Assembly (NCBI GenBank): GCA_964016885.1
Contig: OZ024744.1
Location: 68,510,001 to 68,574,000, forward strand
Length of the DNA: 64,000 nucleotides
Direction: 5' to 3'
From: Eledone cirrhosa
Lineage: Eukaryota
Every line of letters begins with the position of its first letter. Position 1 is the stretch's first letter. Shown here piece after piece: positions 16,039 through 62,043 of the stretch. The notes under the pieces were generated by a model. The model made no database searches. It was not told the DNA's origin and saw only the letters and a list, made by a program, of their open reading frames with translations. The position numbers and the translations under genes are program-made.

Positions 16039-17912
16039 TATGAAAAAGTTTGTCCTCATCAGTGGCCTTCCAACCGTCGTAGGCATTTCGTCGCATTAAA
16101 GGCCATATACCTCAGGTTGGTGCGAACAACGGCTAAAAAAGTCGTTGGGACACGTAAATAAAGGGGACGCTAGGGTAAACAAACAAAATGGTGAAGCAAC
16201 AGAAAGTGAGGAAGAAAGAGACAAGTCCCAGATTTCTATGAATATAAATTCGGTGGAATCGTGAACGAGAGAATAAAGACCATAAAACCTGGTTGAAATG
16301 TGAGCAAGGAAGGAATTTCGCACAGGTCTAACGGGAGGAAGAAGGGGTCTGGTCTGCGAATTCGGTAAACATAAGTTCTGTGAAGTCGCAGACGAGAGAG
16401 AGAGAAAAAAAAAATTCATACCGGCTTGGCCAAGTGCCCGCAAGAAAAGGATTACGGACAGGTCAAACGGGAAGAAAGGGGAGGAGGAGAGGTAGTGACA
16501 GAGAGTGAGTGAGTGAAAGGTGAGGAAGAGGCTAAGGCTAACAGAGAGAGAGAGAGACTGCTAGAAAGGGTAAAGACACAAAGAACGAAACAGACTGGTG
16601 GCAGCGGAGGAAAAAATATATGTGTAAATATGATAATAATGGAGCTGCGGCGCTGCAAATGGGTTACATATGAAAAAGTTTGTCCCCATCAGTGGCCTTC
16701 CAACCGTCGTAGGCATTTCGTCGCATTAAAGGCCATATACCCCAGGTTGGTGCGAGCAACGGCTAAAAAAAGTCGTTGGGACACGTAAATAAAGGGGACG
16801 CTAGGGTAAACAAACAAAATGGTGAAGCAACAGAAAGTGAGGAAGAAAGAGACAAGTCCCAGATTTCTATGAATTTAAATTCGGTGAAATCGTGAACGAG
16901 AGAATAAAGACCATCAAACCTGGTTGAAATGTGAGCAAAGAAGGAATTTCGCACGGGTCTAACGGGAGGAAGAAGGGGTCTGGTCTGCGAATTCGGTAAA
17001 CATAAGTGTAACTTAAATTGGGTGTGGTTGTCTTTTAGACTCCAGATATAAGCTGAAAGTGACGTCATATTCCTTCTTAGAGGGTAACGAAAAGAATGGG
17101 TATGCATGTAAAGATGCTGCTTGAATCTATTGGTGGTTAACCCTATGTAGGCCCTACGGGACGTGGGTATTTCAACCTTACATTTGTAGACAATGTTACT
17201 AGAGAGGCATTTCCCGGATAGGGGGCAATCAACTCGATTCCTACAATTACAGTTAGTACTAACTACAGGGTTGCACGTGTTCCTACGGCTAGGTAGTTTA
17301 GATAAATTTGAAGCTGTGATGTTATGTGCAAGGTTAGGAGTCGTAGAGTAAGAAATTTTAATAGTATTTCTATTGAAAATTTTACTATATTTATGTGTAG
17401 GGGGAAAATGCTTCGTAAAAAGGGAAAGAAAGATCATAGCTAATGGTGTGGCCACCTCTATATTATATGGTGGGTTATACCAACAAATGCGACGGGATCT
17501 ATTTCTTCTAGGTCTATTTTCGTACTCTGTATATGCTACCTTATCGACAAATCCACTCCGAGCAAGAGCTTCATTGTAATAAGTGGAATGGTCGTTGAAA
17601 ATATGCTCGTTAGTAGATAGACGGGAAAGCCTCAAAGAAATGTTTCTTACCAGGTTCTTGGTTATGATGGCAGGATGGTTGGATGCTTACTTATGTAATT
17701 AAGCGTATCATTCGGCTTTCTATACGGGTAATACAACCCATTCGATAAATTTAGGGTAACGTTGAGGTAATTAACGACCGAGAGATTGGCCTCAATCTGT
17801 ATAACGAGGTTGAAGCCTTTAAAAAAGGCTGTGAGTTCTTTTCTGAACCTGTCGCAAGCACAAGGTCCGCACTTAGTCATGGTCAAAATACCATCATCAC
17901 GGGACAAAGCGC
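16039..17912 (-). mobile_element. PLE fragment (RT C-terminus + GIY-YIG) with tandem pLTR-like repeats
   Basis: RDDG..YLNVTLNL..YRKPND..YISKH (17662-17907); RLSRLS..CNCRNRVDCPLSGKCL..IVYKC..YIGLT (16763-17635). Direct repeat 16039-16376 matches 16667-17006. Confidence 0.88.
16052..16120 (-). ncRNA. Rearranged hammerhead-like motif with kink-turn (second copy ~16682-16750 has A9 changed to G)
   Basis: ccaac c TGA ggtaT A tggcctt taatgcgac GAA Atgcc TAC GA c g gttgg aaggcca CTGATGA. It covaries with the copy at 59824-59891. Stem II is unresolved. Confidence 0.55.
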
Positions 17913-21714: not shown

Positions 21715-24700
21715 TTCGTTTCTGAATTTGTTTAGCAAGATTCTTTATCTGAAATCGTGTGTTGAAACCGATATTGTTATACTTAGGGAGGGTCATGTTG
21801 CCAATAAGAAACACACGCACCAGTTGCTTTCACTTCAATTTATTATAATAAATTTATAATAAATTTATAATAAATTTATAAATTTATAAATTTCTGGTTG
21901 GTTGGTTGGTTCCACAACCAGATAGTTGTTTATATATTGTCATAGTTCTTTCGTCACACACTCTGTGACCTCTTCAGTGACTGGGGATTCCTTTCTTTGT
22001 TTCTGTGCCTCTCCTTTGTTCTGTCCTACGCCATTTTGTTTCTGTGTGTGTGTTGTGTGCTCAGTCTGCGCATGCGCCACATCCGGGTGTCTGTGTGTGT
22101 TTATGTTCATTTATTTATTTGTTTATTTACATGTTACTGGTTGGTTGTTTCTTCTATGTGTGTGTGTGTTTTCATTTTGTCCTTAATTGTAAGTTGTGAT
22201 GTTGCTGTTCCACTCATATTTTCTATTTAATTTTGTTTGTAATTCTTTTATGTTTATTGCCTCTGTAATTTGTCTAAACATTGTGTCTTTTCTGTGTGTA
22301 GATTCTATTTTTATTTCTATGTTCTCTAATTTACCCTTGTGTTCTATTTTAGCATGTTGGTAGAGTACAGATGATTCTTTACTATCTTGAAGGTCTCGCC
22401 AGTGTTCATTTATCCGTTCTCCTATGCTACGAGCTGTCTCACCTATGTACACTATATTTTTGTCTCTACATTGTCCTTCAGTACATCTTATGCTATACAC
22501 TACATTTCTAGTTTTGCAGTTAATATGGGGGCTTATTTTACAGGTTATACATTTCTTATCTATACATGAGGGTCTTTGAAAAGGGTATGTCTTGCTAATA
22601 AGTGTTTTTATGGAGGTACCTGGTCTTTCTACTATCTTAATATTGAGTTTATGTTTGTTTAGGGCCCTTCTAAATTTGTAAGCTAATTCCCCTCTAGGGG
22701 TTGTATCGATGAACATTACACTCTGGTATTTATTGCTATCATACCATGAGTTTATTCTATTAGCCTTGTTCCTAGTTCTTTCTATTCTATTCCAAAATTT
22801 GCTCCTATACAAGGGGCAGGTCCCATTTATATCATTATTTACCATTTTTTCCCATTTGGTTCTGGCTCCTCTATACACTCTGATTTTATCTCTCTGATTG
22901 TAGCCAGAGAACTGCATACGGTTGATGAAGTGTTGTATGTGTCTCTCTAGTTCTTCGGGGTTGCACATGCGGGACACGTTTCTCATCACCCGTACCAAAT
23001 CCGCAATCAGTATGTTGATTTTGGTATGGTCCGAAACGGCCGAGTTTCGGTGAATCAGATGTTTGGAAGTCATGGGTTTGGCATAATGGGAATGGAGGAT
23101 TTGTTTTTTGTTGTTAATGGTATCTAACTAGAGCTCTGTGTCTAGTACAGGTAATCGATGGTTGGGGTGTTTACTTGGGTAGTCTATAATAACTCTAATG
23201 CTCTGGTGGATGGAGTTTGCTATTTGCTGGATGCTTTCCATTGTGTTTTTCTCTAGTTCCTGACTGTTCTCTAGTGGGGGTGTCTTAACTACGATATTTA
23301 TAACATCAACGTAGCGGGAGTACATTATCAGGGTTAAGGGTCTTCTAATTGTTCTTTAAGTTTAAGTTTAAGTCTACTGTCCCACCACACCATGAATAAG
23401 TTAGCTATGTCGCCTGCAATGCTAACACCAATGGCTGCTCCTTCCTCTTGGGCATATGTTTTTCCATTAAATTTGAACATATGTTCCTTAAGGGTTAGTT
23501 TTATGCTGGCCCCTACCGCATGTGCAATCATTTTCTTCAGTTCATCGTGGTTTTCGGGTGTCTGTATGGCTCTGGTCCACCCGTTCCATCTATCTGTGTG
23601 AGTTTTCTTGGCCATTGAGGTAATGGTAGGTGGTCTGCCTCTTGCTGGTCTAGTAGGGCACAGGTTGCTAAGGTCATATGTGTCTAGGTAATTATTACTA
23701 TAGGTAAGTTTAAGTAGGAGTCCCAGCTCACTGGTATCAATCCCACGGAACTCAACATTGCTCTCACTGATCATTTCTACGCATTTCTCCACAGCAAAAT
23801 GCACGTCAATAGATGGATACAGGGACACAACATCCATACTACCTATTATGCAGTTTGTTAGGTCCCTAGATCGGTTACCCACGCCGATTCTGCTGAGGAG
23901 GTCCTCCGTGCTGTCACATACATCTGGGGACATTTCAATGATGGGGCGTATGATCAGGGAGAGGAAGTAGGACAGTCTGTAGTTACTAGCAATGTTAGCT
24001 CCACAGACTGGCCGTGTTGGTGGTCCCGCGACAGGGTCACTGCCCGTTTTATGGTCTTTTCGAAGCCCATACAACGCCGGCACGTCATTGTTCCAGGCCT
24101 GGAAGTTGTTGGCAGTTCTTTTGTTGGGCTGCATTATATTCGTCCACATCACCATATGGGCATTGAGGGCTTTTTCTCTATCCTCATGCTCCTGTGGTGT
24201 TACCTCTCTTGTGTTAGTGATGTGGGGTTGCATTGCCTGGATGTAGTTTGGCAGGCTGTCAACCGACATTCTGCCAGACTTGTCTGTTGGAAAGCATGCT
24301 ATCTCTCCATTACGTGAGCGCTGCATGAGCTTACGCAAGCCATTTGCAGATTTTTCTCCCTGTTGCTGGGCCTCCATTCTATTATGCTTCTTGCTATACT
24401 GTTCTATAATATTTCAAAGTTCGGATCTAGCTATACTAAATTGTGCTTTTGTTTGTTCATCGACCTGCGACGGCAATTGCGTGCGTTTGTTAAATGGTAA
24501 AGTCGTGGCGTGGACTCGTCGCAGGTCGAACGATTTATCCGAGGGATTATGAAAGTAGAGTTCCAGGCTGCTGCTTTATGTGTACTAGTGCTATTGTTAT
24601 TGTTAGTTGTGTTGTTTCTATTTCTATTTCTACCAACAGCCTCATGGTTGTTTCTATGTCTCTCATAATTACTCCTGTCTCTTTCCACTGGCTCATTGTT

Positions 24701-26456
24701 GTTATCTACCCTATTTTGTGTGTCTGTGTGTTCGTCTTGGTTATTTTCTTTGTCCTTAGTCTCCCTTCTCCTTTTTATCCTATTACTTTCCCTTATTTCT
24801 GTGATTTCTGTGCTACTGTCATTACTTGTTTTCTGTGTCTGTGTGTTTGTTAAGATTGTGATGGTGGTGAGAGGCATTGAATGCGTGTGTGTTGTTGTTG
24901 TTGATGTGTGCTGTTGTTGATGTGTGTTGTTGTTGTCTCCGTGTGTGTTATTATTGTTGTGTGTGTTGTTATTGTTGTTTGTGTCTGCGTGTCTGTTGTT
25001 GTTGTTTCTGGGTATATTGTTATTGTTGTTGTTGTTGCTGGTGTGTGTGTTGTTGTTATTGTTGTTTGTGTCTGTGTGTCTGTTGTTGTTGTTGGGATGT
25101 GTGTTGTATATGTGCGTGCGTATATTGTTGCTTTTGTTTTTGTTTTTGAGGCTCCAGCGTAGTTTTGTAAATGATTTTTCGATTTCTGACAGACAACTAA
25201 TCATATTTACCTTCTTGAATGTCGCAAATTTCGGGTGTAAACATAACACAGATATCTCATCGTCATCTATTCTTGTGTTGCCGTATATATTTGTGTTGTT
25301 GTTGTTGTTGAACTCATCTGTTAATGAGGTGTCGGCCATATTTATACCGTCAATTATCTCGGGATATCTATTGGTATTCTCTATAGTATCCTGATTTAGC
25401 TTTATCTGCTTAAGCCACTTTAGTTTCTTGTTAAAGTGCTTATCACATTCTTGAGTAATGTACTGCTCTTCAGGATGTATAAGGCTTATAAATATTAGTT
25501 TCTCTCTTGGTGTGGTGATCCTAGCTATTTCTTGTATTAGGTTACGCTTATGTTTTTCTTGATGACTTAATTCTCTATAGATCTTCTTTTTTATGTTTAG
25601 AATTAATGTTCGTTTTAGCCTATCTGCTTGTTTTTTGGTGAGTTGTAATCTTCTTACGTCGGTGTTGATGGTGTTGGTGTAAACTCGGGACGTGGCACAT
25701 TCTTTTATGAAGTGTAGTTGTCGAGATGTTATGGTTTTTCGTAGACAACAGAACATGGTGGTTTTCAGTATCTTGTTAGCCTGGCTAAGGCTTACGATAT
25801 TTCGTTTCTGAATTTGTTTAGCAAGATTCTTTATCTGAAATCGTGTGTTGAAACCGATATTGTTATACTTAGGGAGGGTCATGTTGCCAATAAGAAACAC
25901 ACGCACCAGTTGCTTTCACTTCAATTTATTATAATAAATTTATAATAAATTTATAATAAATTTATAAATTTATAAATTTCTGGTTGGTTGGTTGGTTCCA
26001 CAACCAGATAGTTGTTTATATATTGTCATAGTTCTTTCGTCACACACTCTGTGACCTCTTCAGTGACTGGGGATTCCTTTCTTTGTTTCTGTGCCTCTCC
26101 TTTGTTCTGTCCTACGCCATTTTGTTTCTGTGTGTGTGTTGTGTGCTCAGTCTGCGCATGCGCCACATCCGGGTGTCTGTGTGTGTTTATGTTCATTTAT
26201 TTATTTGTTTATTTACATGTTACTGGTTGGTTGTTTGTTCTATGTGTGTGTGTGTTTTCATTTTGTCCTTAATTGTAAGTTGTGATGTTGCTGTTCCACT
26301 CATATTTTCTATTTAATTTTGGTTGTAATTCTTTTATGTTTATTGCCTCTGTAATTTGTCTAAACATTGCGTCTGTACTCTACCAACATGCTAAAATAGA
26401 ACACACGGGTAAATTTGAGAACATAGAAATAAAAATAGAATCTACACACAGAAAAG
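21713..26456 (-). mobile_element. Naiad-like PLE copy A (two frameshifts and a stop) with direct pLTRs and a 5' inversion
   Basis: Near-identical to 45607-50121. pLTR 21713-22283 repeats at +4086. 26373-26456 is an inverted copy of ~22285-22370. RT motif reads YVDV instead of YVDD. Confidence 0.92.
21939..21981 (-). ncRNA. Minimal HHR motif in Naiad pLTR (also 26025-26067, 45838-45880, 49914-49956)
   Basis: gtca CTGAAGA g gtcaca gagtg tgtgac GAA A gaac T A tgac. There is one extra nucleotide after A9. The architecture is kept in diverged relatives at 19365 and 38791. Confidence 0.7.
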
Positions 26457-35760: not shown

Positions 35761-36456
35761 AAATGAGTCAGGACCACGACGGCTGAGCTCCGGCCATTTC
35801 GACAGCTAGATCCGAACAGCTAGATAGCTGTCGAAACGGCCGGAGCTCAGCCGTCGGGGTCCTGACTTATTTCCTATTACCCACTCTACTACCCATACAT
35901 ATATAGATGGATTCAGGAAGGCGAGGCTGTGTGGTTATTGATAACGAGTGTTTAGAAGGTAAGGTGACACAAACAAGAGGTGGACAGTTTCCCTTTGTCA
36001 GCTGTTTACTTCGGATCATGGATGTTTCGGCACATTATAAACAGAACATCTATCCATAGCGCTCCCATAGCCTTTTATCTATCAAAAAGCCATGAGGGAA
36101 AGAAGTGATAGCGAAGAGAGAGAAAGAAAAAAAAGGAAAAAAAGAAGTAAACATACCGATAGAAGGGGGAACACAGGACAATGGCACATGTAAATGAGTA
36201 ACTGAAGAGAAAACAGATCAAGTTAAAAAAAAGCCGTTGGGTTTAAGCCCGGGGGCCATAATAACAGAAGAACTACGTGTATCCGTGGCTATTCTCAGTA
36301 GAGTTTGTGCAGAGAGAGAGAAAGACGCAGACATCGGAAGTTAGAGGGCGTACAAGGTAGAGGGGGTGAGTAAGAGGATAGAGAGAGAGGGGGGAGGTGT
36401 TAATCCAAAAGGGTGTACGGCACACGTGCAGCCGGGACCTGACAAACAACCCAATC

Positions 36457-40019: not shown

Positions 40020-40021
<2 letters not shown>

Positions 40022-43000
40022 AAGGCGGGTAAAATTCCCGAGATCCATGGACGAGTTCTCTCCAGCGGTCTCTGTCCCTCATTATCGCTGCCATATCCTG
40101 CATCTCCAACAGACCAGTGTCTGTCCTTAGGGCATCAACATACGTTAACCTTGGTCTTCCTCTTCTAGTGTGTCCATGTAGGGGCTCCCAAAGGTGCACT
40201 GAGTGCAATGTCAACTCTGGATGTCGGTGAGCATGTCCAGCCAACCTCAGTCTCCTCTGTGTCACTTTTGAGCAGACTTTTGGGATGCTCCCATACAGCT
40301 CTGAGTTTTTCATCCTCAGTGTATACTGATTAATGTTCAGAGCCACCCTCAGCATTCTCGTGTAGCACCCATCCACCATCTGAGTGAGTCTCTTGGTCAG
40401 TGTCCAAGTCTCAGACCCATACAGCAGCACAGACTCCACTACAGCAATGAAGAGGCGGATTTTCAGGTCTCTACGAAGGTCCGACTTCCACACCGATCTC
40501 AAGCTGTGACACGCCGCCCAGGCCTTGCTCTTCCTCTCAACCACATCATCTTCCGTATTCCCAATCTTTGCTCCCAAATACAGGAAGTCCTCAACCAATT
40601 CCAGCGGCTTCCCGCCTACATTAGTGATCCCCTCTGGCTTCTCAACATTCTCTACCAGATATTTTGTTTTAGTCTCATTCATTCTCAGCCCCACACTCAT
40701 CGACACAGTCTCAACCTCCCGCATCAAATCCTCTGCCTCCTTCACTGTATTTGTCACCAAAACTATGTCGTCGGCAAATTCAGCATCCGATACCTTTTTC
40801 GCCCCAACTCTCCTGCTCTGAGCCGGTGCTACAGTAAAGCCAGAGTCCTGGTGTTTCTCCAGTGCAAGGCGCATACAATAGTCCACTACGATGATAAAAA
40901 GGTAGGGAGCCAATGTATCTCCCTGGAGCACTCCAGCCAGTATCTCAAAGAACTCTGTCATCCCATCAGGTGTAATGACTTGGGCTTTGGTGTTGGTGTA
41001 GAGCAGTGATATCAGGTCCACTATCCTCTTGGGGATTCCATAAGCCTGTAAGATCATCAGGCAGTAACGGTCCACAGAATCAAAGGCCTTCCTAAACTCA
41101 ATGAAAACCATGACCGCAGGAAGGCACTTTGCTCTAGCTCCCTCTAATATCCTCCTCAGCATCAGGATGTGACTGGTGGTTGATCTACCCTCTCTGAAGC
41201 CGTTCTGGTTGTCCCTGAGCTTCTTCTCCATCTCAGGCTGGATCCTGTTAAGAATCATCCTGTTGAGGGTCTTTGCCACAAGTAACGTCAGTGAGATCCC
41301 CCGGTAGTTGTTGGTGTTAGAGAGATCTCCCTTCTTTGGCACTGGGACGATGTTACTGATCCTCCACTGATTCGGGGCAACTCCTTTCTCCAGTGCCCCG
41401 TTACAGAACCCCAGGATGATATCATCAAAATCACACCTCTTCATCACCTCTGATGCCACTCCATCTTCTCCATGAGCCTTGCCCTCCTTGATCTTCTTCT
41501 TGGCTCTCTGAAGCTCCTCTCTGGTGAAGGGCTCTGTCTCAACATCCAGTTCCTCAAATAGCCGCCTGATCTCCCCAGTGGTCTGGGCTGTGGAGGGTGG
41601 CTCTCCTAGTAGGGTCCTAAAATGGTCTAGCCATTTCCTCTTCCTATCCTCGGGCCCCGTTCCCTGGATCTGACTCGAACACCTTTTCTTCCTCCCTGTG
41701 ATCTCGTTGATGATCATCCAGCTCTCCTTACATCCAGATCTGTCAACCGCTCTCTCCACACTTCTGATCTTCTCTATCAGTGCCTCCTCTCTGACCTCAG
41801 TGTAAGCGGTACAGAGCTCTTCCCTCATCACCTCCACAGTCTCCATCCTCTCCTCCGTAGGATCAGCATAGAATTGGTCCCTGGCAGCTTTCAGGTGTTC
41901 TCTGGCTGCACACACTTTTGGGTTTGCAGAGCTGACGTGCTTCCCTTTGTTCTTTTTCCTCGGCACCAGGGTTTCACTTGCTTTCGCCACTGCATTGGTG
42001 AAGTGCCCGTACCTCCTCGTCACACTCTCCTCAGTCCATCCAATCTCTCTCTCCTCTGACTCTCCACACAGAGCACTAAACCTGTTTCTCACTTCCACTG
42101 TGAACCTCTCCTGTAGCTTATCATCTTCCTTGAAAGCTCCCCAGTCATAGATTGTTCTCCGGGGCTGAGCCTTGCTCTTTCTTAAGCTCACGCGGACCTC
42201 ACTCATAACAAGCCGGTGGTCACTACCCAGTGTACTGAAATAGCTGTATGGTTCCGTGTTCAGAACACTATTCCGCCACTTTTTCCTCACCAGAATGAAA
42301 TCAATCTGGGACTTGGACAGGTGCATATCTGAGATGTAGGTCCACATCTTCCCCAGATTCTTCCTAAACCTTAGGTTGGTCGCCATCAAGTTCGCCTCCA
42401 GCAGGGTGTCTCTCAGTAGTCTTCCATTTCGGTTGGTGTTGTTATGGAAGTACCAGCAAGGATCTTCACTGCCCTCCTTACTCAGATGTGCATTGAAGTC
42501 CCCCAAAACAAGCAGGATATTGTGTGCCTGAATGGTGTTGACAGCTCTACATACCTCCTCATGGAACTCCTCGGCATTCACATCACTGTCCCCCTCGGTT
42601 GGACTATAGGCTGAGATGACTGTCAGTCTTGGGTTTCCATTGAAGGTCACCCTCAACACTCGCGGGGAGATAGGCATTATTTCCCTCACCAACAGATTGG
42701 TTTTTGCACTGAACACAAAACCCACTCCTCCTACTGCAGCATTTGTTGTGTTCTTCACTGCCGATGTAGTGATGAGCTGGCTCTTCCTCCCGATCATCAC
42801 ACTCCTCACGGGCTCATCGTGTAGAATCCTGTGTTCTTGGATCGCAAGTATCTGTATACCACTCTCCTCGAACAGATGTCGCAACTCCTCTCTCTTCTCC
42901 AGCGTTCGAATAGTCCTCACATTCAAAGTGCCCATTTTGATGGCTCTTCTGCAGGACAAAACTGCATTCTTTATATTTGTCTCAGAGACAGCTGATCCAT

Positions 43001-43151
43001 CATCCACTGGCCCTCTCTGTGGCTCTAAGCCAGCAGAGTCATAACGACCAGGCTGCTCCTTGACAGTGTAATTAGGGGCTCTAACCCTAGTGCTGTTAGA
43101 TCGACTCTCCATATTTCTTTTCAATGGCTGACAATACCTTACCGGCGCCAC
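40020..43151 (-). CDS. RTE APE endonuclease / reverse transcriptase, ~1040 aa
   Basis: APE motifs GTLNVRT, AIQEHR, YSPT, GDFNA, IDF, SDH. RT motifs NYRGISL, QNGFR, KAFDSV, GVLQGD, FADD, YLG. The start codon is uncertain (ATG at MESRS is likely). Confidence 0.92.
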
Positions 43152-43323
43152 TCGAATAAGGTAGTTATTTAACCCATAAATGGAGTCCTAACAGGTACTA
43201 CCACCCCGGGCCAGGGCAGACCTGGGAGTCATGACAACTAAGGGGTAACTCCACATTCCCCACATCTCCTGAACTCCCGAACTGGAGCCTTGCCACTGGA
43301 TGTAGTTTAATGTCATACCCAGG

Positions 43324-45607: not shown

Positions 45608-48600
45608 TTTCGTATCTGAATTTGTTTAGCAAGATTCTTTATCTGAAATCGTGTGTTGAAACCGATATTGTTATACTTTGGGAGGGTCATGTTGTCAATG
45701 AGAAACACACGCACCAGTGTCTTTCACTTCAATTTATTATAATAAATTTATAATAAACTTATAAATTTATAAATTTATAAATTTATAAATTTCTGGTTGC
45801 TTGGTTGGTTCCACAACCAGATAGTTGTTTATATATTGTCATAGTTCTTTCGTCACACACTCTGTGACCTCTTCAGTGACTGGGGATTCCTTTCTTTGTT
45901 TCTGTGCCTCTCCTTTGTTCTGTCCTACGCCATTTTGTTTCTGTGTGTGTGTTGTGTGCTCAGTCTGCGCATGCGCCACATCCGGGTGTCTGTGTGTGTT
46001 TATGTTCATTTATTTATTTGTTTATTTACATGTTATTGGTTGGTTGTTTGTTCTATGTGTGTGTGTGTTTTCATTTTGTCCTTAATTGTAAGTTGTGATG
46101 TTGCTGTTCCACTCATATTTTCTATTTAATTTTGGTTGTAATTCTTTTATGTTTATTGCCTCTGTGATTTGTCTAAACATTGCGTCTTTTCTGTGTGTAG
46201 ATTCTATTTTTATTTCTATGTTCTCTAATTTACCCGTGTGTTCTATTTTAGCATGTTGGTAGAGTACAGATGATTCTTTACTATCTTGAAGGTCTCGCCA
46301 GTCTTCATTTATCCGTTCCCCTACACTACGAGCTGTCTCACCTATGTACACTATATTTTTGTCTCTACATTGTCCTTCAGTACATCTTATGCTATACACT
46401 ACATTTCTAGTTTTACAGTTAATATGGGGGATTATTTTACAGGTTATACATTTCTTATCTATACATGAGGGTCTTTGAAAAGGGGATATCTTGCTAATAA
46501 GTGTTTTTACGGAGGTACCTGGTCTTTCTACTATCTTAATATTGAGTTTATGTTTATCTAGGGCCCTTCCAAATTTGTAAGCTAATTCACCTCTATGGGT
46601 TGTATCGATGAACATTACACTCTGGTATTTATTGCTATCATACGATGAGTTTATTCTATTAGACTTGTTCCTAGTTCTTTCTATTCTATTCCAAAATTTG
46701 ATCCTATACAAGGGGCAGGTCCCATTTATGTCATTATTTACCATTTTTTCCCATTTGGTTCTGGCTCCTCTATACACTCTGATTTTATCTCTCTGATTGT
46801 AGCCAGAGAACTGCATACGGTTGATGAAGTGTTGTATGTGTCTCTCTAGTTCTTCGGGGTTGCACATGCGGGACACGTTTCTCATCACCCGTACCAAATC
46901 CGCAATCAGTATGTTGATTTTGGTATGGTCCGAAACGGCCGAGTTTCGGTGGATCAGATGTTTGGAAATCATGGGTTTGGCATAATGGGAATGGAGGATT
47001 TGTTTTTTGTTATTAATGGTATGTAACCAGAGCTTTGTGTCTAGTACAGGTAATCGATGGTTGGGGTGTTTACTTGGGTAGTCTATAGTAACTCTAATGC
47101 TCTGGTGGATGGAGTTAGCTATTTGCTGGATGCTTTCCATTGTGTTTTTCTCTAGTTCCTGACTGTTCTCTAGTGGGGGTGTCTTAACTACGATGTTTAT
47201 ATCATCAACGTAGCGGGAGTACATTATCAGGGTTAAGGGGTATTCTAATTGTTCTTTAAGTTTAAGTTTAAGTCTACTGTCCCACCATACCATGAATAAG
47301 TTAGCTATGTCGCCTGCAATGCTAACACCAATGGCTGCTCCTTCCTCTTGGGCATATGTTTTTCCATTAAATTTGAACATATGTTCCTTAAGGGTTAGTT
47401 TTATGCTGGCCCCTACCGCATGTGCAATCATTTTCTTCAGTTCATCGTGGTTTTCGGGTGTCCGTATGGCTCTGGTCCACCCGTTCCATCTATCTGTGTG
47501 GGTTTTCTTGGCCATTGAAGTAATGGTAGGTGGTCTGCCTCTTGCTGGTCTTGTAGGGCACAGGTTGCTAAGGTCATATGTGTCTAGGTAATTATTACTA
47601 TAGGTAAGTTTAAGTAGGAGTCCCAGCTCACTGGTATCAATCCCACGGAACTCAACATTGCTCTCACTGATCATTTCTACGCATTTCTCCACAGCAAAAT
47701 CCACATCAATAGATGGATACAGGGACACAACATCCATACTACCTATTATGCAGTTTGTTGGGTCCCTAGATTGGTTACTCTCGCCGATTCTGCTGAGGAG
47801 GTCCTCCGTGCTGTCACATACATCTGGGGACATTTCAATGATGGGACGTATGATCAGGGAGAGGAAGTAGGACAGTCTGTAGTTACTAGCAATGTTAGTT
47901 CCACAGACTGGCCGTGTTGGTGGTCCCGCGACAGGGTCACTGCTCGTTTTATGGTCTTTTCGAAGCCCATACAACGCCGGCACGTCATTGTTCCAGGCCT
48001 GGAAGTTGTTGGCAGTCCTTTTGTTGGGCTGCATTATATTCGTCCTCATCACCATATGGGCATTGAGGGATTTTTCTCTATCCTCATGCTCCTGTGGTGT
48101 TACCTCTCTTGTGTTAGTGATGTGGGGTTGCATTGCCTGGATGTAGTTTGGCAGGCTGTCAACCGACATTCTGCCAGACTTGTCTGTTGGAAAGCATGCT
48201 ATCTCTCCATTACGCGAGCGCTGCATGAGCTTACACAAGCCATTTGCAGATTTTTCTCCCAGTTGCTGGGCCTCCATTCTATTATGCTTCTTGCTATACT
48301 GTTCTATAATATTTCTAAGTTCGGATCTAGCTATACTAAATTGTGCTTCTGTTTGTTCATCGACCTGCGACGGCAATTGCGTGCGTTTGTTAAATGGTAA
48401 AGTCGTGGCGTGGACTCGTCGCAGGTCGAACGATTTATCGGAGGGATTATAAAAACTAGAGTTCCAGGCTGCTGCTTTATGTGTACTAGTGCTATTGTTA
48501 TTGTTAGTTGTGTTGTTTCTATTTCTATTTCCACCAACAGCCTCATGGTTGTTTCTATGTCTCTCATAATTACTCCTGTCTCTTTCCACTGGTTCATTGT

Positions 48601-50121
48601 TGTTATCTACCCTATTTTGTGTGTCTGTGTGTTCGTCTTGGTTATTTTCTTTGTCCTTAGTCTCCCTTCTCCTTTTAATCCTATTACTTTCCCTTATTTC
48701 TGTGATTTCTGTGCTACTGTCATTACTTGTTTTCTGTGTCTGTGTGTTTGTTAAGATTGTGGTGGTGGTGAGAGGCATTGAATCTGTGTGTGTTGTTGTT
48801 GTTGATGTGTGCTGTTGTTGATGTGTGTTGTTGTTGTCTCCGTGTGTGTTATTATTGTTGTGTGTGTTGTTATTGTTGTTTGTGTCTGCGTGTCTATTGT
48901 TGTTGTTTCTGGGTATGTTATTATTGTTGTTGTTGTTGGTGTGTGTGTTGTTGTTATTGTTGTTTGTGTCTGTGTGTCTGTTGTTGTTGGGATGTGTGTT
49001 GTATATGTGTGTGCGTATATTGTTGCTTTTGTTTTTGAGGCTCCAGCGTAGTTTTCTAAATGATTTTTCTATTTCTGACAGACAACTAATCATATTTACC
49101 TTCTTGAATGTCGCAAATTTCGGGGGTAGACGTAATACAGATAACTCATCGTCATCTATTACTGTGTTGCCGTATATATTTGTGTTGTTGTTGTTGTTGA
49201 ACTCATCTGTTAATGAGGTGTCGGTCATATTTATACCGTCAATTTTGTCGGGATATCTATTGGTATTCTCTACAGTATCCTGATTTAGCTTTATCTGCTT
49301 AAGCCACTTTAGTTTCTTGTTAAAGTGCTTATCACATTCTTGAGTAATGTACTGTTCTTCAGGACGTATAAGGCTTCTAAATATTAGTTTCTCTCTTGGT
49401 GTGGTGATCCTAGCTATTTCTTGTATTAGGTTACGCTTATGTTTTTCTTGATGACTTAATTCTCTATTGATCTTCTTTTTTATGTTTAGAATTAGTGTTC
49501 GTTTTAGCCTATCTGCTTGTTTTTTGGTGAGTTGTAATCTTCTTACGTCGGTGTTGATGGTGTTGGTGTAAACTCGGGACGAGGCACATTCTTTTATGAA
49601 GTGTAGTTGTCGAGATGTTATGGTTTTTCGTAGACAACAGAACATGGTGGTTTTCAGTATCTTGTTAGCCTGGCTAAGGCTTACGATATTTCGTTTCTGA
49701 ATTTGTTTAGCAAGATTCTTTATCTGAAATCGTGTGTTGAAACCGATATTGTTATACTTAGGGAGGGTCATGTTGCCAATAAGAAACACACGCACCAGTT
49801 GCTTTCACTTCAATTTATTATAATAAATTTATAATAAATTTATAATAAATTTATAAATTTATAAATTTCTGGTTGGTTGGTTGGTTCCACAACCAGATAG
49901 TTGTTTATATATTGTCATAGTTCTTTCGTCACACACTCTGTGACCTCTTCAGTGACTGGGGATTCCTTTCTTTGTTTCTGTGCCTCTCCTTTGTTCTGTC
50001 CTACGCCATTTTGTTTCTGTGTGTGTGTTGTGTGTTCAGTCTGCGCATGCGCCACATCCGGGTGTCTGTGTGTGTTTATGTTCATTTATTTATTTGTTTA
50101 TTTACATGTTACTGGTTGGTT
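45607..50121 (-). mobile_element. Naiad-like PLE copy B, apparently full length, direct pLTRs
   Basis: pLTR 45607-46045 repeats at +4076. The ORF begins inside the 5' pLTR. The 3' end abuts (TA)n. Confidence 0.93.
46082..49795 (-). CDS. PLE polyprotein: N-terminal domain, Asn/Thr/His-rich linker, RT, C-terminal GIY-YIG
   Basis: TDKSG, RPVCG, MDVVSLYPSI, GAAIG, YSRYVDD, LPVLD, CxxxxCxxC, VVYSIRC..YIGETAR..RQITEA..LN. The likely start is the ATG of MTLPKY (~49771). Naiad assignment rests on recalled motif style. Confidence 0.92.
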   Translation of the reverse strand: MRVFLIGNMTLPKYNNIGFNTRFQIKNLAKQIQKRNIVSLSQANKILKTTMFCCLRKTITSRQLHFIKECASSRVYTNTINTDVRRLQLTKKQADRLKRTLILNIKKKINRELSHQEKHKRNLIQEIARITTPREKLIFRSLIRPEEQYITQECDKHFNKKLKWLKQIKLNQDTVENTNRYPDKIDGINMTDTSLTDEFNNNNNTNIYGNTVIDDDELSVLRLPPKFATFKKVNMISCLSEIEKSFRKLRWSLKNKSNNIRTHIYNTHPNNNRHTDTNNNNNNTHTNNNNNNNIPRNNNNRHADTNNNNNTHNNNNTHGDNNNTHQQQHTSTTTTHTDSMPLTTTTILTNTQTQKTSNDSSTEITEIRESNRIKRRRETKDKENNQDEHTDTQNRVDNNNEPVERDRSNYERHRNNHEAVGGNRNRNNTTNNNNSTSTHKAAAWNSSFYNPSDKSFDLRRVHATTLPFNKRTQLPSQVDEQTEAQFSIARSELRNIIEQYSKKHNRMEAQQLGEKSANGLCKLMQRSRNGEIACFPTDKSGRMSVDSLPNYIQAMQPHITNTREVTPQEHEDREKSLNAHMVMRTNIMQPNKRTANNFQAWNNDVPALYGLRKDHKTSSDPVAGPPTRPVCGTNIASNYRLSYFLSLIIRPIIEMSPDVCDSTEDLLSRIGESNQSRDPTNCIIGSMDVVSLYPSIDVDFAVEKCVEMISESNVEFRGIDTSELGLLLKLTYSNNYLDTYDLSNLCPTRPARGRPPTITSMAKKTHTDRWNGWTRAIRTPENHDELKKMIAHAVGASIKLTLKEHMFKFNGKTYAQEEGAAIGVSIAGDIANLFMVWWDSRLKLKLKEQLEYPLTLIMYSRYVDDINIVVKTPPLENSQELEKNTMESIQQIANSIHQSIRVTIDYPSKHPNHRLPVLDTKLWLHTINNKKQILHSHYAKPMISKHLIHRNSAVSDHTKINILIADLVRVMRNVSRMCNPEELERHIQHFINRMQFSGYNQRDKIRVYRGARTKWEKMVNNDINGTCPLYRIKFWNRIERTRNKSNRINSSYDSNKYQSVMFIDTTHRGELAYKFGRALDKHKLNIKIVERPGTSVKTLISKISPFQRPSCIDKKCITCKIIPHINCKTRNVVYSIRCTEGQCRDKNIVYIGETARSVGERINEDWRDLQDSKESSVLYQHAKIEHTGKLENIEIKIESTHRKDAMFRQITEAINIKELQPKLNRKYEWNSNITTYN

Positions 50122-50484
50122 GAATTCCAACTTTGTCTGATTTACTCGTTTTATTTACAATCCTTTAAAATTTATAATGGTATTAGAATGAAATAGTATG
50201 GTAGAATATTAAATGTTAAGTGTTAATTGAACAAGTACTTTCATGCTTTCGCAATCTTCAGGTTCACATTTTGTGGTGACAGTCAAGTTTGCAATTTTCA
50301 ACTGTTGAAAATTGCACACTTCACTGTCACCACACAATAGGAACCTGAAGATTGCGAAAGCATGAAAGTACTTGTTCAATTAACACTTAACATTTAATAT
50401 TCTACCATACTATTTCATTCTAATACCATTATAAATTTTAAATGATTGTAAATAAAACGAGTAAATCAGACAAAGTTGGAATTC
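50122..50484. ncRNA. 363-bp palindrome with two divergent minimal HHRs (50229-50265 minus, 50341-50377 plus)
   Basis: gaac CTGAAGA ttgc gaaa gcat GAA AGTACT T gttc, identical on both arms. Confidence 0.82.
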
Positions 50485-52459: not shown

Positions 52460-55400
52460 AATAATAAAGAAATGAATGAGAATGAACTTGCCAACTTGAA
52501 GGATGAAATTATGATTGAATGGATGAAAATGAAAGAATCTGACATGGGGCAACGAGACACCCTCCCTAAGATCCAGAACTCCAAACAGAACCAAAAGATA
52601 ATACACAAGACTAACATAATTCTCAAAAACATTATCATCACAAACAAACTAAACATTACTGATTTAAATCATCTCTATTATGCATCGGCTAAAGTCACCA
52701 CTCACTTATGTGGAGTGAAGATGAAAAAACAAAGGAATTCCCACAAGAAATCTACTTGGCAAGAGAACATCAATCGCCAAATAAACCTTCTCCGATCTGA
52801 CAGAAATTTTAACAAACTACAAAGTAGGTGAACATGTTAAACAAACTAAACTTAGAAAATTGAAAAAAAAGTACAGTATATAATCAACATGTGACATAGA
52901 CATGCTGATAGAAATAATCAAGCAAAAAGTGTCGGCCAAAGCTGCTCGTATAAGGCGCTTTGAAAAACGATCTAGATTCTATAAGGACAATAATATGTTC
53001 AAAAACAACCAAAGAAACTTCTACAGAAAAATTGGTAAGTCAACAATAACTGCTAAATCAATACCACCCAAGGAGGAAGTGCAAGAATGCTGGGAAAAGA
53101 TCTGGGCCGAAGAAAAAGTTCATAACATACATGCCCCATGGATAGACAGACAAATGAAAGATACAGCTCACCTTGAGGAACAAATATGGGAAAATATAAC
53201 AGTTGAACAGTTGCGCTTGGCTCTAAGAAAAACCTGCAAATGGAAATCCCCAGGAAAAGACAAAATACAAAACTTTTGGATAAATACCTTCACAGAGTCT
53301 CATGAGCTGTTAGCCCAACTTTACAATGAAATAGTTAAGGAGCCAGAAAAGATACCATCATGGCTAGTTAACGGCATTACATTCCTGCTTCCGAAGAATG
53401 ATGAGACAAACAATCCCAAAAATTACAGACCGATAACTTGCTTGACCACAATGTATAAAATGTTAACATCAGTCCTAACTGAATATACATATGACCACCT
53501 TATAACAAATGACCTATTTCCCATTGAGTAGAAAGGGTGTAAACGAGGCTCATATGGCTGTAAGGATCAGCTTCTGGTTAACAAAATGATACTGGAAGAT
53601 TGTCATAATAGACACAAAAATCTATCGATTGCTTGGATAGATTATAAAAAAGCATTCGATAGTTTGCCACATAGTTGGATTGAAAAATGTTTAGAGATTT
53701 TCAAAATATCCCCCGTTGTCAGGAGGTTTTTGTCATTCAGTATGAAGACATGGAAAACGACACTCCTTTTGAATAGTGAAACAAAATCACTGGAAGCTGG
53801 AGAAGTTAATATTAATTGTGGAATTTTTCAGGGTGACTCTTTATCACCGCTTTTATTCTGCATCGCACTTATACCATTAAGTAAAATGCTCAATGAAACA
53901 AAAAATGGATATAAAGTCTATGACAAAACCATTAATCATCTGTTCTACATGGATGACCTGAAACTATTTGCAAAAAATGATGAACAATTGCAAGGGCTAT
54001 TATCCACTGTGAAGCAGTTCAGTGATGACATTAAAATGGAGTTTGGACTAGATAAATGCGCCAAAGCAACGTTCACCAGAGGAAAGCTGCTGAAGAGTTC
54101 AGACATTAATCTTGATCGGGGGAACGTGATGAGAGAACTTGATCAAGAAAAAACTTACAAATATCTAGGTGTTTGTGAAGGAGACGGAATCAAGCACTCG
54201 AGAATGAGGGAAAGGATAAGGAAGGAATGTTACCGCAGAGTAAGAGCAATCTTAAGAACGGAATTGAATGCAAGGAATAGGATCGATGCCATAAACACGC
54301 TTGCCATACCAGTAGTAACCTACAGTTACAATGTCATCCACTGGTCAAGCACAGAGATCCGTAGGCTCGATACAAAAATTCGAAAATTCTTAACCATGCA
54401 TAGAATGCATCACCCTAAGGCAGATATAGATAGAATATATCTCCCTAGGAAAGAAGGAGGACGTGGGTTAATCCAGTTAGACATTGCGTTGAAAACTGCA
54501 ACAATTGGATTATCTACATATCTAAGGGAATCACATGATTGGATGATCAAACTCGTTTTGAAACACGAAAGCATCAAAAGATCATATTCCATTACAAAAG
54601 ATGCACAAAGATACAGTAATGGACTACAAATTTCAGAAGTCCCATTTACTGCTGAAATGGAAAACACAGAAAAAGCAAAGCAGGTAAAAGTAACTGCAAA
54701 GAAAGAACTGCTACAGAAACTGGCTAAGAAATGGCAAGAAAAGCCTCTGTATGGAAAATACCCAGAGCGAGCTAACAATCCTGATGTTGACAAAACTTTA
54801 ACCCATCAGTGGTTGACATCCTCTGGACTGAAATCGGAGACTGAAGGACTGATTATATCAGCACAAGATCAGTGTCTGACCAACAAAAAATTACCAAGCC
54901 AACATAATAAAAAAATGGATGCAGCCCATTATGCCGTGTATGCAAAAAACAACCAGAGACCATTGACCATATAATTTCAATGTGCAGTCCTATAGCTCCA
55001 ACCGAATACCTAAACAGGCATGACAGAGCTGCACAATACATACATTGGATAATGTGTAAGCATTTTGACCTGCCCCATCAAAAGAATTGGTGGGAGCATC
55101 AACCACCTCCCATACTTGAAAAAGATCACATCTCAATCTTGTGGAACTTTAGCATCCAAACAGACCGAAAAATAGATGCAAATAGACCTGATATAATATT
55201 GAAGGACTTTAAAAAGAGGGTATGCCTGCTAATTGATATGTCCGTTCCAATAGACAAGAATGTATCTATAAAAACATTTGAAAAATTAAGCAAGTATAAG
55301 GACCTGGAGATAGAAATTGGAAAAATGTGGAAATTGAGAACTAAAACAATACCAGTGGTTGTAGGCGCTCTGGGAATGATACCTAAGGGGTCTAATGATT

Positions 55401-55661
55401 ACTTATCGCAGATCCCAGGAAACCCGCGTATAGGAGAAATACAAAAGATAGTACTCATGGGAACTGCCCATATACTAAGGAAGATTCTGTCAATATAAGT
55501 ACATCACAAGTCTAAACACTAAAGATGCATGTGTGAGTATGTATGTTCTTCCTTGAACATGGCGGACCTTGTTGTCTCTTGAGGTCACTGGTTGTGACTT
55601 GGTGATAACTCGTATGAACATAAAGCAAGATAAATGCAACTGTAATAATAATAATAATAAT
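52460..55661 (+). mobile_element. Dong/R4-clade non-LTR retrotransposon (RT + CCHC + restriction-like endonuclease), disrupted
   Basis: [66 protein letters not shown]. Flanked by (AAT)n. Confidence 0.92.
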
Positions 55662-57699
55662 CAGAACCGCATGTTCGACAACAACCAGAAGATGCTGTTT
55701 GGACAGCTTGAGGGGAAAGAAAGAGGCAACGACTTGATCCCTGAGGCGGAACAAACTAAAACATTCTGGAGTGGTAGAAAGGACCAGTTACTTATTGATA
55801 AGATGGTAATGGGGAATTGCAGTAGGAGACACACTGATCTTGCCATGGGATGGATAGACTACAGAAAGGCATTTGACATGGTGCCTCATTCTTGGATCAC
55901 CAAAAGCCTGGAGATCTTCAAGGTGGCAGATAACATCAGACAGTTGTTGGGCAAAAGTATGAGGTCCTGGGAAACAGAGTTGACATCAACTGGAGAGTCC
56001 TTGGGAAGCGTGAAGATCAAGAGAGGTATCTTTCAGGGAGATAGCCTGTCCCCTCTGCTGTTTGTCCTTGCCCTGATGCCCCTGACCAGTGTACTGCGAA
56101 AAGTGAGAGCAGGATACAGGTTGGGAAAGGGAGGGCTTACCATCAATCACCTCCTCTTCATGGACGATCTTAAGCTCTTCGGGAAAAGTGAGAAGGAGTT
56201 GGATGTGCTTGTTGACACTGTCCGTATTTTCAGCAGTGATATATGTATGCAGTTTGGTATTAGTAAGTGTGGAGTCATTGTGATGAGGAGGGTAGGTTGA
56301 GCAGAAGTAACGGAATCCAGATACCAACAGGTGAGATGATAAAGGAAATTGACTCTGAGGAAGGATACAAGTATTTGGGCGTTCTGGAGGCTGATGGCAT
56401 AAAGAACAAAAAAATGAAGGAATTGTTAAGAACTGAATACATTCGGAGAGTAATGAGCGTATTGAAGTCACATCTGAACAGCAGAAATTCCATAAGCGCA
56501 GTAAATTCCCGAGCTGTGTCTATTATTAGGTACAGTGCGGGAATTCTGAGATGGAATGTTGCTGAACAGAAAGAAATGGATAGGAAGACTAGGAAGCTAT
56601 TGACTATCTACAATATGTTCCACAAGAGGAGTGATGTCGATAGACTCTACTTAAGGAGATCTGAGGATGGAAGACGTCTTATCAGCATAGAGGACTGTGT
56701 TCAGATGGAGAAAAACAAGCTACACAAATACGTGACTGAGAGTAAGGAGCCAATGCTCAGAACTGTACTGAAGGAGGGGACAATAGGCCAGGGGATGTCC
56801 AAGGAGGAAATAACATCAAGGAGAAAGAGCAGCCTTCAGGAAAAATCCCTTCATAGTACCTTCTTTGAGAAAACTGAATTTAGAGATCCACAGACATGGA
56901 ACTGGTTGAGAAGAGGAGACCTTAAAAAGGCTACAGAAGGAATGTTAATGGCTGCGCAGAAGCAGGCCCTCAAAACGAAGTGGTTGAAACACCATATTTA
57001 TAAGGAGGAGGCTAGCCCACTGTGCAGGATCTGTGGAGAGAGAGAGAGAGGTGACTGTGGCTCACATTGTATCCGAGTGTAAACACCTAGCCCAGACCCA
57101 CTGTAAGGGCTGGAGACATGATGTGATGGGCAGGGTGATCCACTGGCACCTGTGCAAAGTAAACAATTTACCACATTCTGAGAAATGGTATGCGCATAAA
57201 CCAGAGGCGGTGATAGAAAACGATCAGGTGAAGGTGCTGTGGGATTTTAGGATACAGACGGACAAGAAACTGGAACACAATAGACCTGACCTGGTGGTTT
57301 TGGACAAAGAAAAAAGATCGTGCCTGATTGTGGATGTGGCCTGTCCATTCGACACGAGAGTGCAAGAGAAGGAGAGGGAGAAAATTAACCGATACCAAGA
57401 CTTAAAGTGGGAGGTAAAAAGGATTTGGAACTGCCATGAAGTCAAAGTGATCCCGATTGTCATAGGCGCACTAGGGACTATCTCAAAAAGTTTCCAGGGA
57501 TGGTGAAAGAAAATTGGCCCCTTCACGCTTTTTGGAACGCTTCAAAAGGCATGCTTGCTGGGAACAGCAAGAACCCTCCGATACGTCCTGAATATCTGAG
57601 GCTGCAGGTAGTGGCTTGATATTCATCTCAACAAACTTTCCAGTTAACTAACATCAATGACTGAGACTCAAAGAGTAATAACAATGATAATAATAATAA
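55662..57699 (+). mobile_element. Second Dong/R4 family, 5'-truncated and internally deleted
   Basis: [52 protein letters not shown]. (AAT)n tail. Confidence 0.9.
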
Positions 57700-58955: not shown

Positions 58956-59741
58956 GACATTCCAATCTCATAATAATTTTTATTGCAAATGGGACATACA
59001 GCATCAGCCTTTTTTCTCAGGAGGTGTGATCCTATAATACCTTGGCATATGGTTCAAATATTTAATTTTGTATTAGACATTTTATATTAAAAAAAGATAT
59101 ACAAATGGAAGAAAACCCCTCTGCGTAAACTAAATACAATAGCCAAATAACGGCAATTTCACGATCACCACCATCAATCCCAGCATAATGATAATTATTA
59201 TTATTGTATCTCAAAGTGTCTCAAACTGTTTAGTTCAAATATTAAGGAAGGGTGTCAACCTGTATATTAAATATAAGTAACAAACCACAAAGCTACTGAA
59301 CAGAACATAGACACAACATAGCTAACAAAAATATCAAACACAACAACATCACATTGTAATGGCTACAAAATTTAGTCAAGACAAACCAACAGCAACATCA
59401 ACGCCATCACTACAGCTCCATCGCCACCACCACTATTCACTTCTGTTAACTTAAGAAAAGACGACATAAAATTTGATGAGAAGGAGAGGGAAGGTAGCAG
59501 TAACAGTAGACAAGACTAGAAAGGAAGAATCTTCAGAAAGAATCTTCAAACCCGGTCAAAATGAAATTTGGAACATCTCAACAGTAACAGTTAGAATGAC
59601 ACCCATGTCCCCCACCGACAATAGAACACCCCCGCTCCCCACTAACAACACTTCAGAAATCTATTTTTAGACTAAAGTCAATAACCTTGCAACCTGCTAC
59701 CAAACTGCCTTACTGTGTTTAATGTGTGTAAGTATATAGAT

Positions 59742-60360
59742 ATAGGAATGAAAAATGGCGTGCTGCATTGTTGCGAATGTGATACATATGAATTAAAAAA
59801 ATAGAGCAAGAAACGAGGACTATCCGTCATCAGTGATCTTCTGGCCATCATCGGTATTTCTTCGCATTAAAGACCAGATACCTCAAGCCAGCGCGAAAAA
59901 TAACTAAAATAAGTTATTGGGATAAAAAGAATTGGGTGGAGAAAGAGAGACATGTAAACAAACAAAAATGGTAAGGCAACGTAAAGATAGGAAAATGATA
60001 CATGTGAACTTCAATTCTAGCAAATCATTGACGAGAAGACGAAGGACGCCTCCGAATCCTGCGAAATGTAAGCGGGAAAAGGATTTCACACATGTCAGAC
60101 GGGAGGAAGTGAGAGAGGGGGAGTAGCAGAGAGTGAGTGAGTGAAAGTGAGAGGAAGAAGCCAGCCGAGAGAGGGTGACCAGCAGAGGGGTGAATGAAAG
60201 TAAGAGGTACCAAGAGAGAGAAGGGTGAGAGAGAAAGAGGATAGCAGTAAGGGAATAGAAAAAGACAGGTCACAGCGAGGGGAAAAGTATAGGAATGAAA
60301 AATGGCGTGCTGCGTTGCTGTGAATGTGATACATATGAATTAAAAAATAGAGGAAGAAAC
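59742..60360 (-). mobile_element. Solo pLTR-type unit related to 16039-16760, with rearranged HHR-like motif at 59824-59891
   Basis: Terminal direct repeat 59742-59814 matches 60288-60360. Collinear similarity to the 16-kb repeat. Confidence 0.7.
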
Positions 60361-60363
60361 CAG

Positions 60364-61732
<1,369 letters not shown>

Positions 61733-61737
<5 letters not shown>

Positions 61738-62043
61738 AAGTTAAATAAAAAGTCAAATGTTTAAAATTTAGTTTCGTTTATTACTGCTATATATATTTCG
61801 GTGACAGCCATCTTTGGCTGTGACCTCTTCAGGCAGTTCGAATTATAACAACCCAACAAGGAACTGGGCATATCAGAGTATTGACAAAATTATACACCTC
61901 AACAACATATGTACTTGTCTATACCACACTAATTCGGACTGCCTGAAGAGGTCACAGCCAAAGATGGCTGTCACCGAAATATATATACCAGTAATAAACG
62001 AAGCTAAATTTTAAACATTTGACTTTTTATTTAACTTTATTTT
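61733..62043. ncRNA. Inverted-repeat element with two HHRs (61783-61837 minus, 61938-61992 plus)
   Basis: actgc CTGAAGA ggtcacagcca aaga tggctgtcacc GAA ATATATAT A (g/c)cagt. Confidence 0.82.

Follow-up and report, generated by a model that had tools for sequence, protein, structure and literature searches.

The locus and its repeat family

The window, the whole stretch of 64,000 nucleotides analysed here, corresponds to positions 68,510,001-68,574,000 of contig OZ024744.1 of Eledone cirrhosa, whose 3.0-Gb genome is rich in microsatellites. At 59742-60360 it contains a non-coding insertion on the minus strand, made of about 1.13 units of a tandem monomer of about 550-565 nt; in this copy the unit measures 546-547 nt, with several small deletions relative to another family copy (L004), and its nearest relatives are 92% alike. 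An earlier sequence-only reading had reported no open reading frame, and none of note is present, ATG-started frames reaching only 79, 52 and 36 amino acids. The 73-bp direct repeats that it described exist but are imperfect, aligning over 79 columns with 92.4% identity at an offset of 546-547 (59741-59819 versus 60288-60365). These repeats and the relatives of the insertion in the window are:

60288-60365, minus strand: 5' partial unit (first of the described direct repeats), beginning just 3' of where the ribozyme of an upstream unit would end
59741-59819, minus strand: second direct repeat, forming the 3' end or tail of the unit; 92% identical to 60288-60365 and one of the two preferred 3' ends of the family
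16048-16784, minus strand: family B, related and younger, with two copies of the fold (predicted cuts 16106 and 16736), the second with a changed CTGATGA
35985-36100, minus strand: third member, distant and decayed (predicted cut 36045), with GAAAC, a GUU triplet, one changed core base and most helices in other letters

Head-to-tail arrays occur with a period of 549-566 nt in the family of the 59742-60360 insertion (family A) and of 621-641 nt in family B, whose copies (represented by 16048-16154) are 92-96% alike and form long tandem arrays. Family copies sit in (TA)n, often with an inverted 5' piece, and have variable starts and two preferred 3' ends, which rules out LTR-like fixed terminal repeats; the terminal redundancy, presented earlier as a feature of the unit, is specific to this one copy. 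The earlier suggestion that the element was reverse-transcribed from a tandem or circular RNA is supported by the family arrays, the (TA)n targets and the 5' inversions, and circular and tandem linear templates both fit the 59742-60360 copy. The arrays, (TA)n sites, 5' inversions and variable starts therefore indicate that its terminal redundancy reflects about 1.13 rounds of copying, and it is an older copy, because its own two repeats have drifted 8% apart. In the accessible part of PMC8557442, Penelope-like elements are described as having (TA)n targets, partial tandems, 5' inversions and tails, and the family displays all of these Penelope-like (Naiad-derived) features.

The family is abundant. 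An exact pattern for GAAA followed by CTGAnGA has 17,158 matches across the 3.0-Gb genome, against one for the reversed control, an abundance that is not due to chance. With the 59742-60360 unit as query, 5,247 first-look candidates were obtained, of which 40 were scored, and the related unit 16040-16900 gave 4,177 first-look candidates. A generic scan of the window for the site-GAAA-CUGAnGA order returned five matches, namely four family members (59877, 36045, 16736 and 16106) and one low-complexity sequence, and a pattern search for variants lacking GAAAT yielded 31 scattered mutants of known subfamilies only.

According to the available parts of the sources, animal non-LTR retrozymes carry type I hammerheads in RNAs of 170-400 nt (PMC7229834; bioRxiv 10.64898/2026.07.22.740005). 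The present elements resemble them in being non-autonomous, non-coding and tandem, with one hammerhead per unit and a tie to Penelope-like elements: units are 549-641 nt long, without a long reading frame, and 59742-60360 comprises 1.13 of them. They differ from the retrozymes as described in the accessible portion of PMC7229834 in that the hammerhead is in scrambled rather than type I order and the units reach 546-641 nt instead of 170-400 nt.

Other mobile elements surround the insertion. Abutting it at 60364-61352 is a tandem repeat with a 543-nt period and an 83-bp inverted piece, in which ordinary-order (type I-like) hammerhead cores with a long stem II insert can be seen by eye at 60543 and 61086 on the plus strand, without a match in Rfam. 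An intact LINE-type reading frame of 1,055 amino acids and several broken LINE-type frames occupy 40020-43187 (minus strand) and 52884-57506 (plus strand). Repeat ends bearing CTGAnGA occur in inverted pairs (44422, 45506, 61576-61577, 39823, 61832-61943 and 50261-50345) and are apparently ordinary Penelope hammerheads.

A scrambled hammerhead core and its predicted fold

The AUC triplet (59879-59877), GAAA (59860-59857) and CTGATGA (59833-59827) named in the sequence-only reading are all present on the minus strand, as are both strands of its k-turn (bulged strand 59852-59847, opposite strand 59886-59883), so that the NUH, GAAA and CUGAnGA elements of a hammerhead core are complete. Read downward from 59924, the blocks follow the order site-GAAA-CUGAUGA (type SGC): site block, stem I strand, 3-nt linker, GAAA block, k-turn bulge, stem I partner and CTGATGA. 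This S-G-C order departs from the circular order C-G-S of hammerhead types I-III in Rfam, and an Rfam search of the window gave no match at the gathering score. The motif bounds given earlier (59824-59891) omit three helices, because the fold spans 59924-59821. Its predicted elements and the downstream ttcgca, in 5' to 3' order along the minus strand, are:

59920-59924, minus strand: Pa 5' strand, closing the fold with 59825-59821; covaries as ATCC/GGAT, GTCC/GGAC and TTCC/GGAA
59898-59919, minus strand: Pb hairpin, with a T at 59898 that breaks the basal pair
59892-59897, minus strand: Pc 5' strand, predicted partner of 59866-59861, standing in for the stem II 5' strand
59883-59891, minus strand: Pd 5' strand and non-bulged k-turn strand
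59877-59882, minus strand: block S, comprising the AUC triplet and the 3' strand of stem III; cleavage predicted between 59877 and 59876
59870-59876, minus strand: stem I 3' strand, pairing with 59840-59834 as a pseudoknot
59861-59869, minus strand: 3-nt linker followed by the 3' strand of Pc, to which position 11.1 (59861) belongs
59853-59860, minus strand: block G, GAAA and stem III 5' strand
59841-59852, minus strand: k-turn bulged strand and Pd 3' strand, with the 3-nt bulge, G.A, A.G and U.U
59826-59840, minus strand: block C, stem I 5' strand, CTGATGA and position 10.1 (C at 59826)
59821-59825, minus strand: Pa 3' strand
59777-59772, minus strand: ttcgca, the stem II partner proposed earlier, lying 50 nt beyond CTGATGA; an alternative pairing at best

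In 29 copies picked by whole-unit homology only, the catalytic nucleotides are the least variable columns: none of the 11 core columns has a variant common to at least three copies, as opposed to 69 of the 415 columns of the unit body, and the minor-base fraction is 0.019 in the core versus 0.075 in the body. Pairing was assessed in an alignment of 25 copies hand-picked from the 188 distinct motif copies in L001-L139 (16 of 24 cluster representatives and nine added rows, eight small clusters, mostly damaged or truncated, being dropped). Over the seven helices, 89.8% of 895 cells are paired and 22 of 36 pairs show two-sided change, values of which neither is reached by any of 500 shuffles, slid controls giving 29-47%; these counts are inflated, because the rows were hand-picked, the structure was drawn from the same rows and the copies are related. 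Further pair types are not above shuffles (114/500). The stems that flank the site are well paired (stem I 90.9%, with two-sided change in five of seven pairs; stem III 98.4%, in two of five), and the NUH rule holds in 23 of the 25 copies.

Standard kink-turns of the box C/D type have a 3-nt bulge followed by G.A and A.G pairs. The stem III arm of the fold carries the same succession with a closing C-G, the closing pair being present in all 25 rows, G.A in 24 and A.G in 21, with U.U at the third position in 14. The setting differs, the motif lying inside a ribozyme arm rather than in a snoRNA, and the 59742-60360 copy has TTGA, not the CTGA of a D box. In one subfamily (L015:922-1028, L070 and L072) the second k-turn pair is A.U and the bulge is shifted; two rows have the non-NUH triplet ACC.

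A contiguous stem II, with its strand directly 3' of CUGAnGA, is missing. The only such pair, 10.1-11.1, forms in 17 of the 25 copies, with four pair types, and is C.A in the 59742-60360 copy; the fold thus fails the contiguous-stem-II test for classical hammerheads and for the described SGC hammerheads alike. Counting either 10.1 or the upstream base as a partner, position 11.1 is paired in 20 of 25 copies and unpaired in five. Among 23 family-A copies, the upstream base alone is available in eight, 10.1 alone in seven, both in one and neither in seven, a split use that suggests branch migration at a four-way junction.

The sequence-only reading had built stem II from tgcgaa and the downstream ttcgca. 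That ttcgca is indeed a perfect 6-bp complement of 59866-59861 in this copy, and the final three of its bases are conserved in 16 of 18 aligned rows; it lies outside the motif as then delimited, many family copies end before reaching it, and it could not form a normal stem II because it is 50 nt past CTGATGA. In the 18-row alignment it is 70.4% paired, with two-sided change in none of its six pairs, below all 500 shuffles. The upstream strand Pc is 87.2% paired with two-sided change in two pairs in the 25-copy alignment (A1), and 73.6% paired with one two-sided pair in the 18-row alignment (A2), in which one row is misaligned. Within the Eledone cirrhosa genome, the comparison thus favours Pc only modestly. 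Stronger support comes from Naiad ends of other animals, in which the upstream strand pairs, by eye, over 5-6 bases with changed letters. The upstream strand is therefore the likelier partner on sequence comparison, and stem II formation with ttcgca is most improbable.

The closest described structures are the type-SGC hammerheads (HRIMA-1 and variants; Eckert et al. 2023, PMC10085705), for which the accessible part of the source gives in vitro cleavage at 0.007-0.19 per min and an origin in metatranscriptomes rather than in genomes of known organisms. As there described, they share with the present fold the site-GAAA-CUGAnGA order, all core bases, stems I and III as pseudoknots and a short linker, of about 3 nt, from stem I to the stem II strand (59869-59867 here). 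In those hammerheads an uninterrupted block C provides a regular stem II helix 3' of CUGAnGA, and there is an extra I-II helix; here, by contrast, 0-1 pair is followed by a four-way junction with the upstream strand (Pa, Pb and Pc), stem III bears a k-turn arm and the host is an animal retroelement. A stem II that is not contiguous with CUGAUGA also breaks the block rule stated in the available portion of that paper, whose accessible text and supplement contain neither "k-turn" nor "kink", and whose supplement does not contain "four-way". No published description of a scrambled hammerhead with k-turn and four-way junction was found in the literature covered, which lay mostly outside subscription journals and excluded bioRxiv supplements.

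Thermodynamic folding of the 59742-60360 copy with RNAfold recovered Pa, Pb, Pd and stem III; the nested fold is no more stable than shuffles (z -0.45), pseudoknots being outside the method. For family B (16048-16154), RNAfold favours a different, long hairpin (z -2.2), in which the core would be buried, possibly as an off state.

Predicted self-cleavage and alternative readings

The minus-strand RNA of this Penelope-like repeat probably folds, on the model above, into a scrambled-order hammerhead that would cut after 59877, and self-cleavage is the most likely function of the family, a lower expectation applying to the 59742-60360 copy itself. In such a ribozyme stem III would be extended through the kink-turn into helix Pd, bending back to the far end of stem I, while stem II, cut to 0-1 pair, would be continued by Pc with the upstream strand at a four-way junction (II/Pc, Pb and Pa). 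The resulting cage would be closed and would tie stems I and II to each other, much as a loop-loop contact does in ordinary hammerheads. Tandem transcripts would be cut to unit-length RNAs, perhaps circularised. A Penelope-like reverse transcriptase/endonuclease acting in trans would then copy these at (TA)n sites, from a point 3' of the ribozyme, and the 73-79-nt overlap seen here would result from copying about 1.13 units.

The 5' ends of genomic copies bear on this proposal. Patterns demanding a foreign flank, with true and false ends judged by eye, gave 43 matches for ends at the cut, 28 of the 30 inspected being true. At -6 there were ten matches (five true) and at -12 seven (three true, from fewer subfamilies), while at +2 there were 74, with 18 true among 30 inspected, 12 of these helped by (TA)n microhomology. 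The signal is thus a step at the cut, not a peak. It fits templates that begin there and is suggestive, given that diverged copies escape the longer upstream patterns and that the counts are confounded by microhomology. A wide-gap (TA)n junction pattern, swamped by overlapping matches and likewise confounded by microhomology, gave 24 distinct sites by eye among the first 100 matches listed: five at the cut, 17 in the next 12 nt, one upstream and one unrelated. No RNA dataset was listed for the family B unit, and four runs of unrecorded kind consist of contigs, which show neither RNA ends nor strand and count on neither side.

The missing peak counts in favour of a rival reading, in which the structure, though hammerhead-derived, is non-cleaving or protein-dependent and would be retained because the retroelement enzyme binds it or primes from it, its k-turn being bound by proteins of the L7Ae/15.5K type. 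In keeping with such a role, stem II is at best a single pair that some subfamilies lack altogether, and genomic copies run across the cut site to end 75-135 nt beyond it, which means that their templates were uncut or re-joined. What makes this reading unlikely is that the catalytic nucleotides are precisely the best-conserved columns, that the NUH rule is kept in all but two of the 25 copies, and that 5' ends rise from the cut onward. A strict need for trans or dimer cleavage, in which the blocks of two tandem units would join in ordinary order, is very unlikely. Minimal Penelope-associated hammerheads have been reported to cleave as dimers (accessible parts of PMC10085705 and PMC7229834) and the family does form tandem arrays, but neither repeating nor circularising a unit can turn a cyclic S-G-C order into C-G-S. 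Moreover, a span of 104 nt contains every partner strand, with Pa closing a single unit.

A self-cleaving family ribozyme could still be represented at this locus by a dead or weak relic, for which there is a substantial though lesser chance. The base at 59898 is T, where 26 of 29 relatives have G, and it opens the base of hairpin Pb; position 10.1 is C (as in 16 of 29) opposite A11.1; and the 8% divergence of the two repeats, together with nearest relatives only 92% alike, speaks of age. Against this, the core bases are all intact, as are both site-flanking stems, Pd and the k-turn, and the C at 10.1 leaves 11.1 to the upstream T (59897), with which it can pair, a state common to eight of the 23 family-A copies. 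The recommendation of this copy as the best single construct is accordingly not upheld, given the open Pb, the diverged repeats and quoted bounds that cut off the junction helices. Family B or the undamaged subfamily copy L002 is a better first construct, and 59742-60360 is suited to a cleavage test only with boundaries longer than those quoted.

Relation to Naiad elements and significance

In the accessible part of Craig et al. 2021 (PMC8557442), elements of the Naiad clade are described as lacking canonical hammerheads, eight being marked half-core, and both cephalopod "HHR_half_core" cases are listed as not fitted. By eye, in the portion of its supplement available, the 3' ends of Naiad_Obim and Naiad_Ovul show the S-G-C order and every helix of the fold, together with the k-turn and an 8-nt Pb loop that matches the one here. 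The S-G-C order with an upstream Pc is also visible in three near-identical and two single further Naiad consensus records, as seen by eye and without a census, whereas other Naiad consensus records there have ordinary hammerhead order. The 3' fold is thus common, by eye only and in these published consensus records, to the present family and to autonomous Naiads. To the extent that the source describes them, Naiads share with the family the (TA)n targets, partial tandems, 5' inversions and tails as well as this fold, and differ in that the 59742-60360 element is non-coding.

Within the Eledone cirrhosa genome, the Naiad_Obim end motif has no match. A Naiad reverse transcriptase motif has one, and the protein of that match led to 115 matches, stops being present in 28 of the top 30; the decayed reverse transcriptase resembles, by eye, the Octopus Naiad consensus in the available record. 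No same-strand fold lies near the Naiad reverse transcriptase in 30 loci with 1.5-kb flanks, one locus region having a family copy on the opposite strand, and none lies within 4.4 kb downstream in 40 extended loci, bar one AT-rich, chance-like match. No intact Naiad carrying the fold was found in the genome, where the one Naiad lineage searched is decayed.

Other Penelope-like sequences are present in the window. At 16763-17686 (minus strand), a fragment comprising the reverse transcriptase end and GIY-YIG part runs straight into family B units, possibly through a template switch; this reading frame was not taken as the parent of family B, because its endonuclease part is cut and the join is seen in only one of the loci L031-L090. 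An intact Penelope-like frame of 1,240 amino acids (46082-49804, minus strand) belongs to a partial tandem of about 4.08 kb, with a copy at 21829-25915 and ordinary-order hammerhead-like cores at 45876 and 49952. Pfam returned no family for five reading frames, this one among them. Its type is one candidate enzyme for the spread of the young family B.

Taken at its fullest, the interpretation is that an active hammerhead of undescribed architecture, with scrambled order, a strand-exchanging four-way junction in place of stem II and a k-turn folding stem III onto stem I, would be the "missing" Naiad ribozyme, driving retrozymes of about 550-640 nt with more than 17,000 copies in one genome. It is given about an even chance. 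Because the Naiads found here are decayed, present mobilisation may depend on the enzyme of another Penelope clade.

If true, this would explain why Naiads were scored as hammerhead-free and why descriptor and Rfam searches miss the fold. Non-circularly permuted hammerheads have so far come from environmental sequence and one bacterium, without a known role; here one would belong to a retroelement that an animal genome carries in very many copies, and natural covariation is available for every helix of the fold. The fold would also put directly to the test whether a hammerhead can do without a contiguous stem II.
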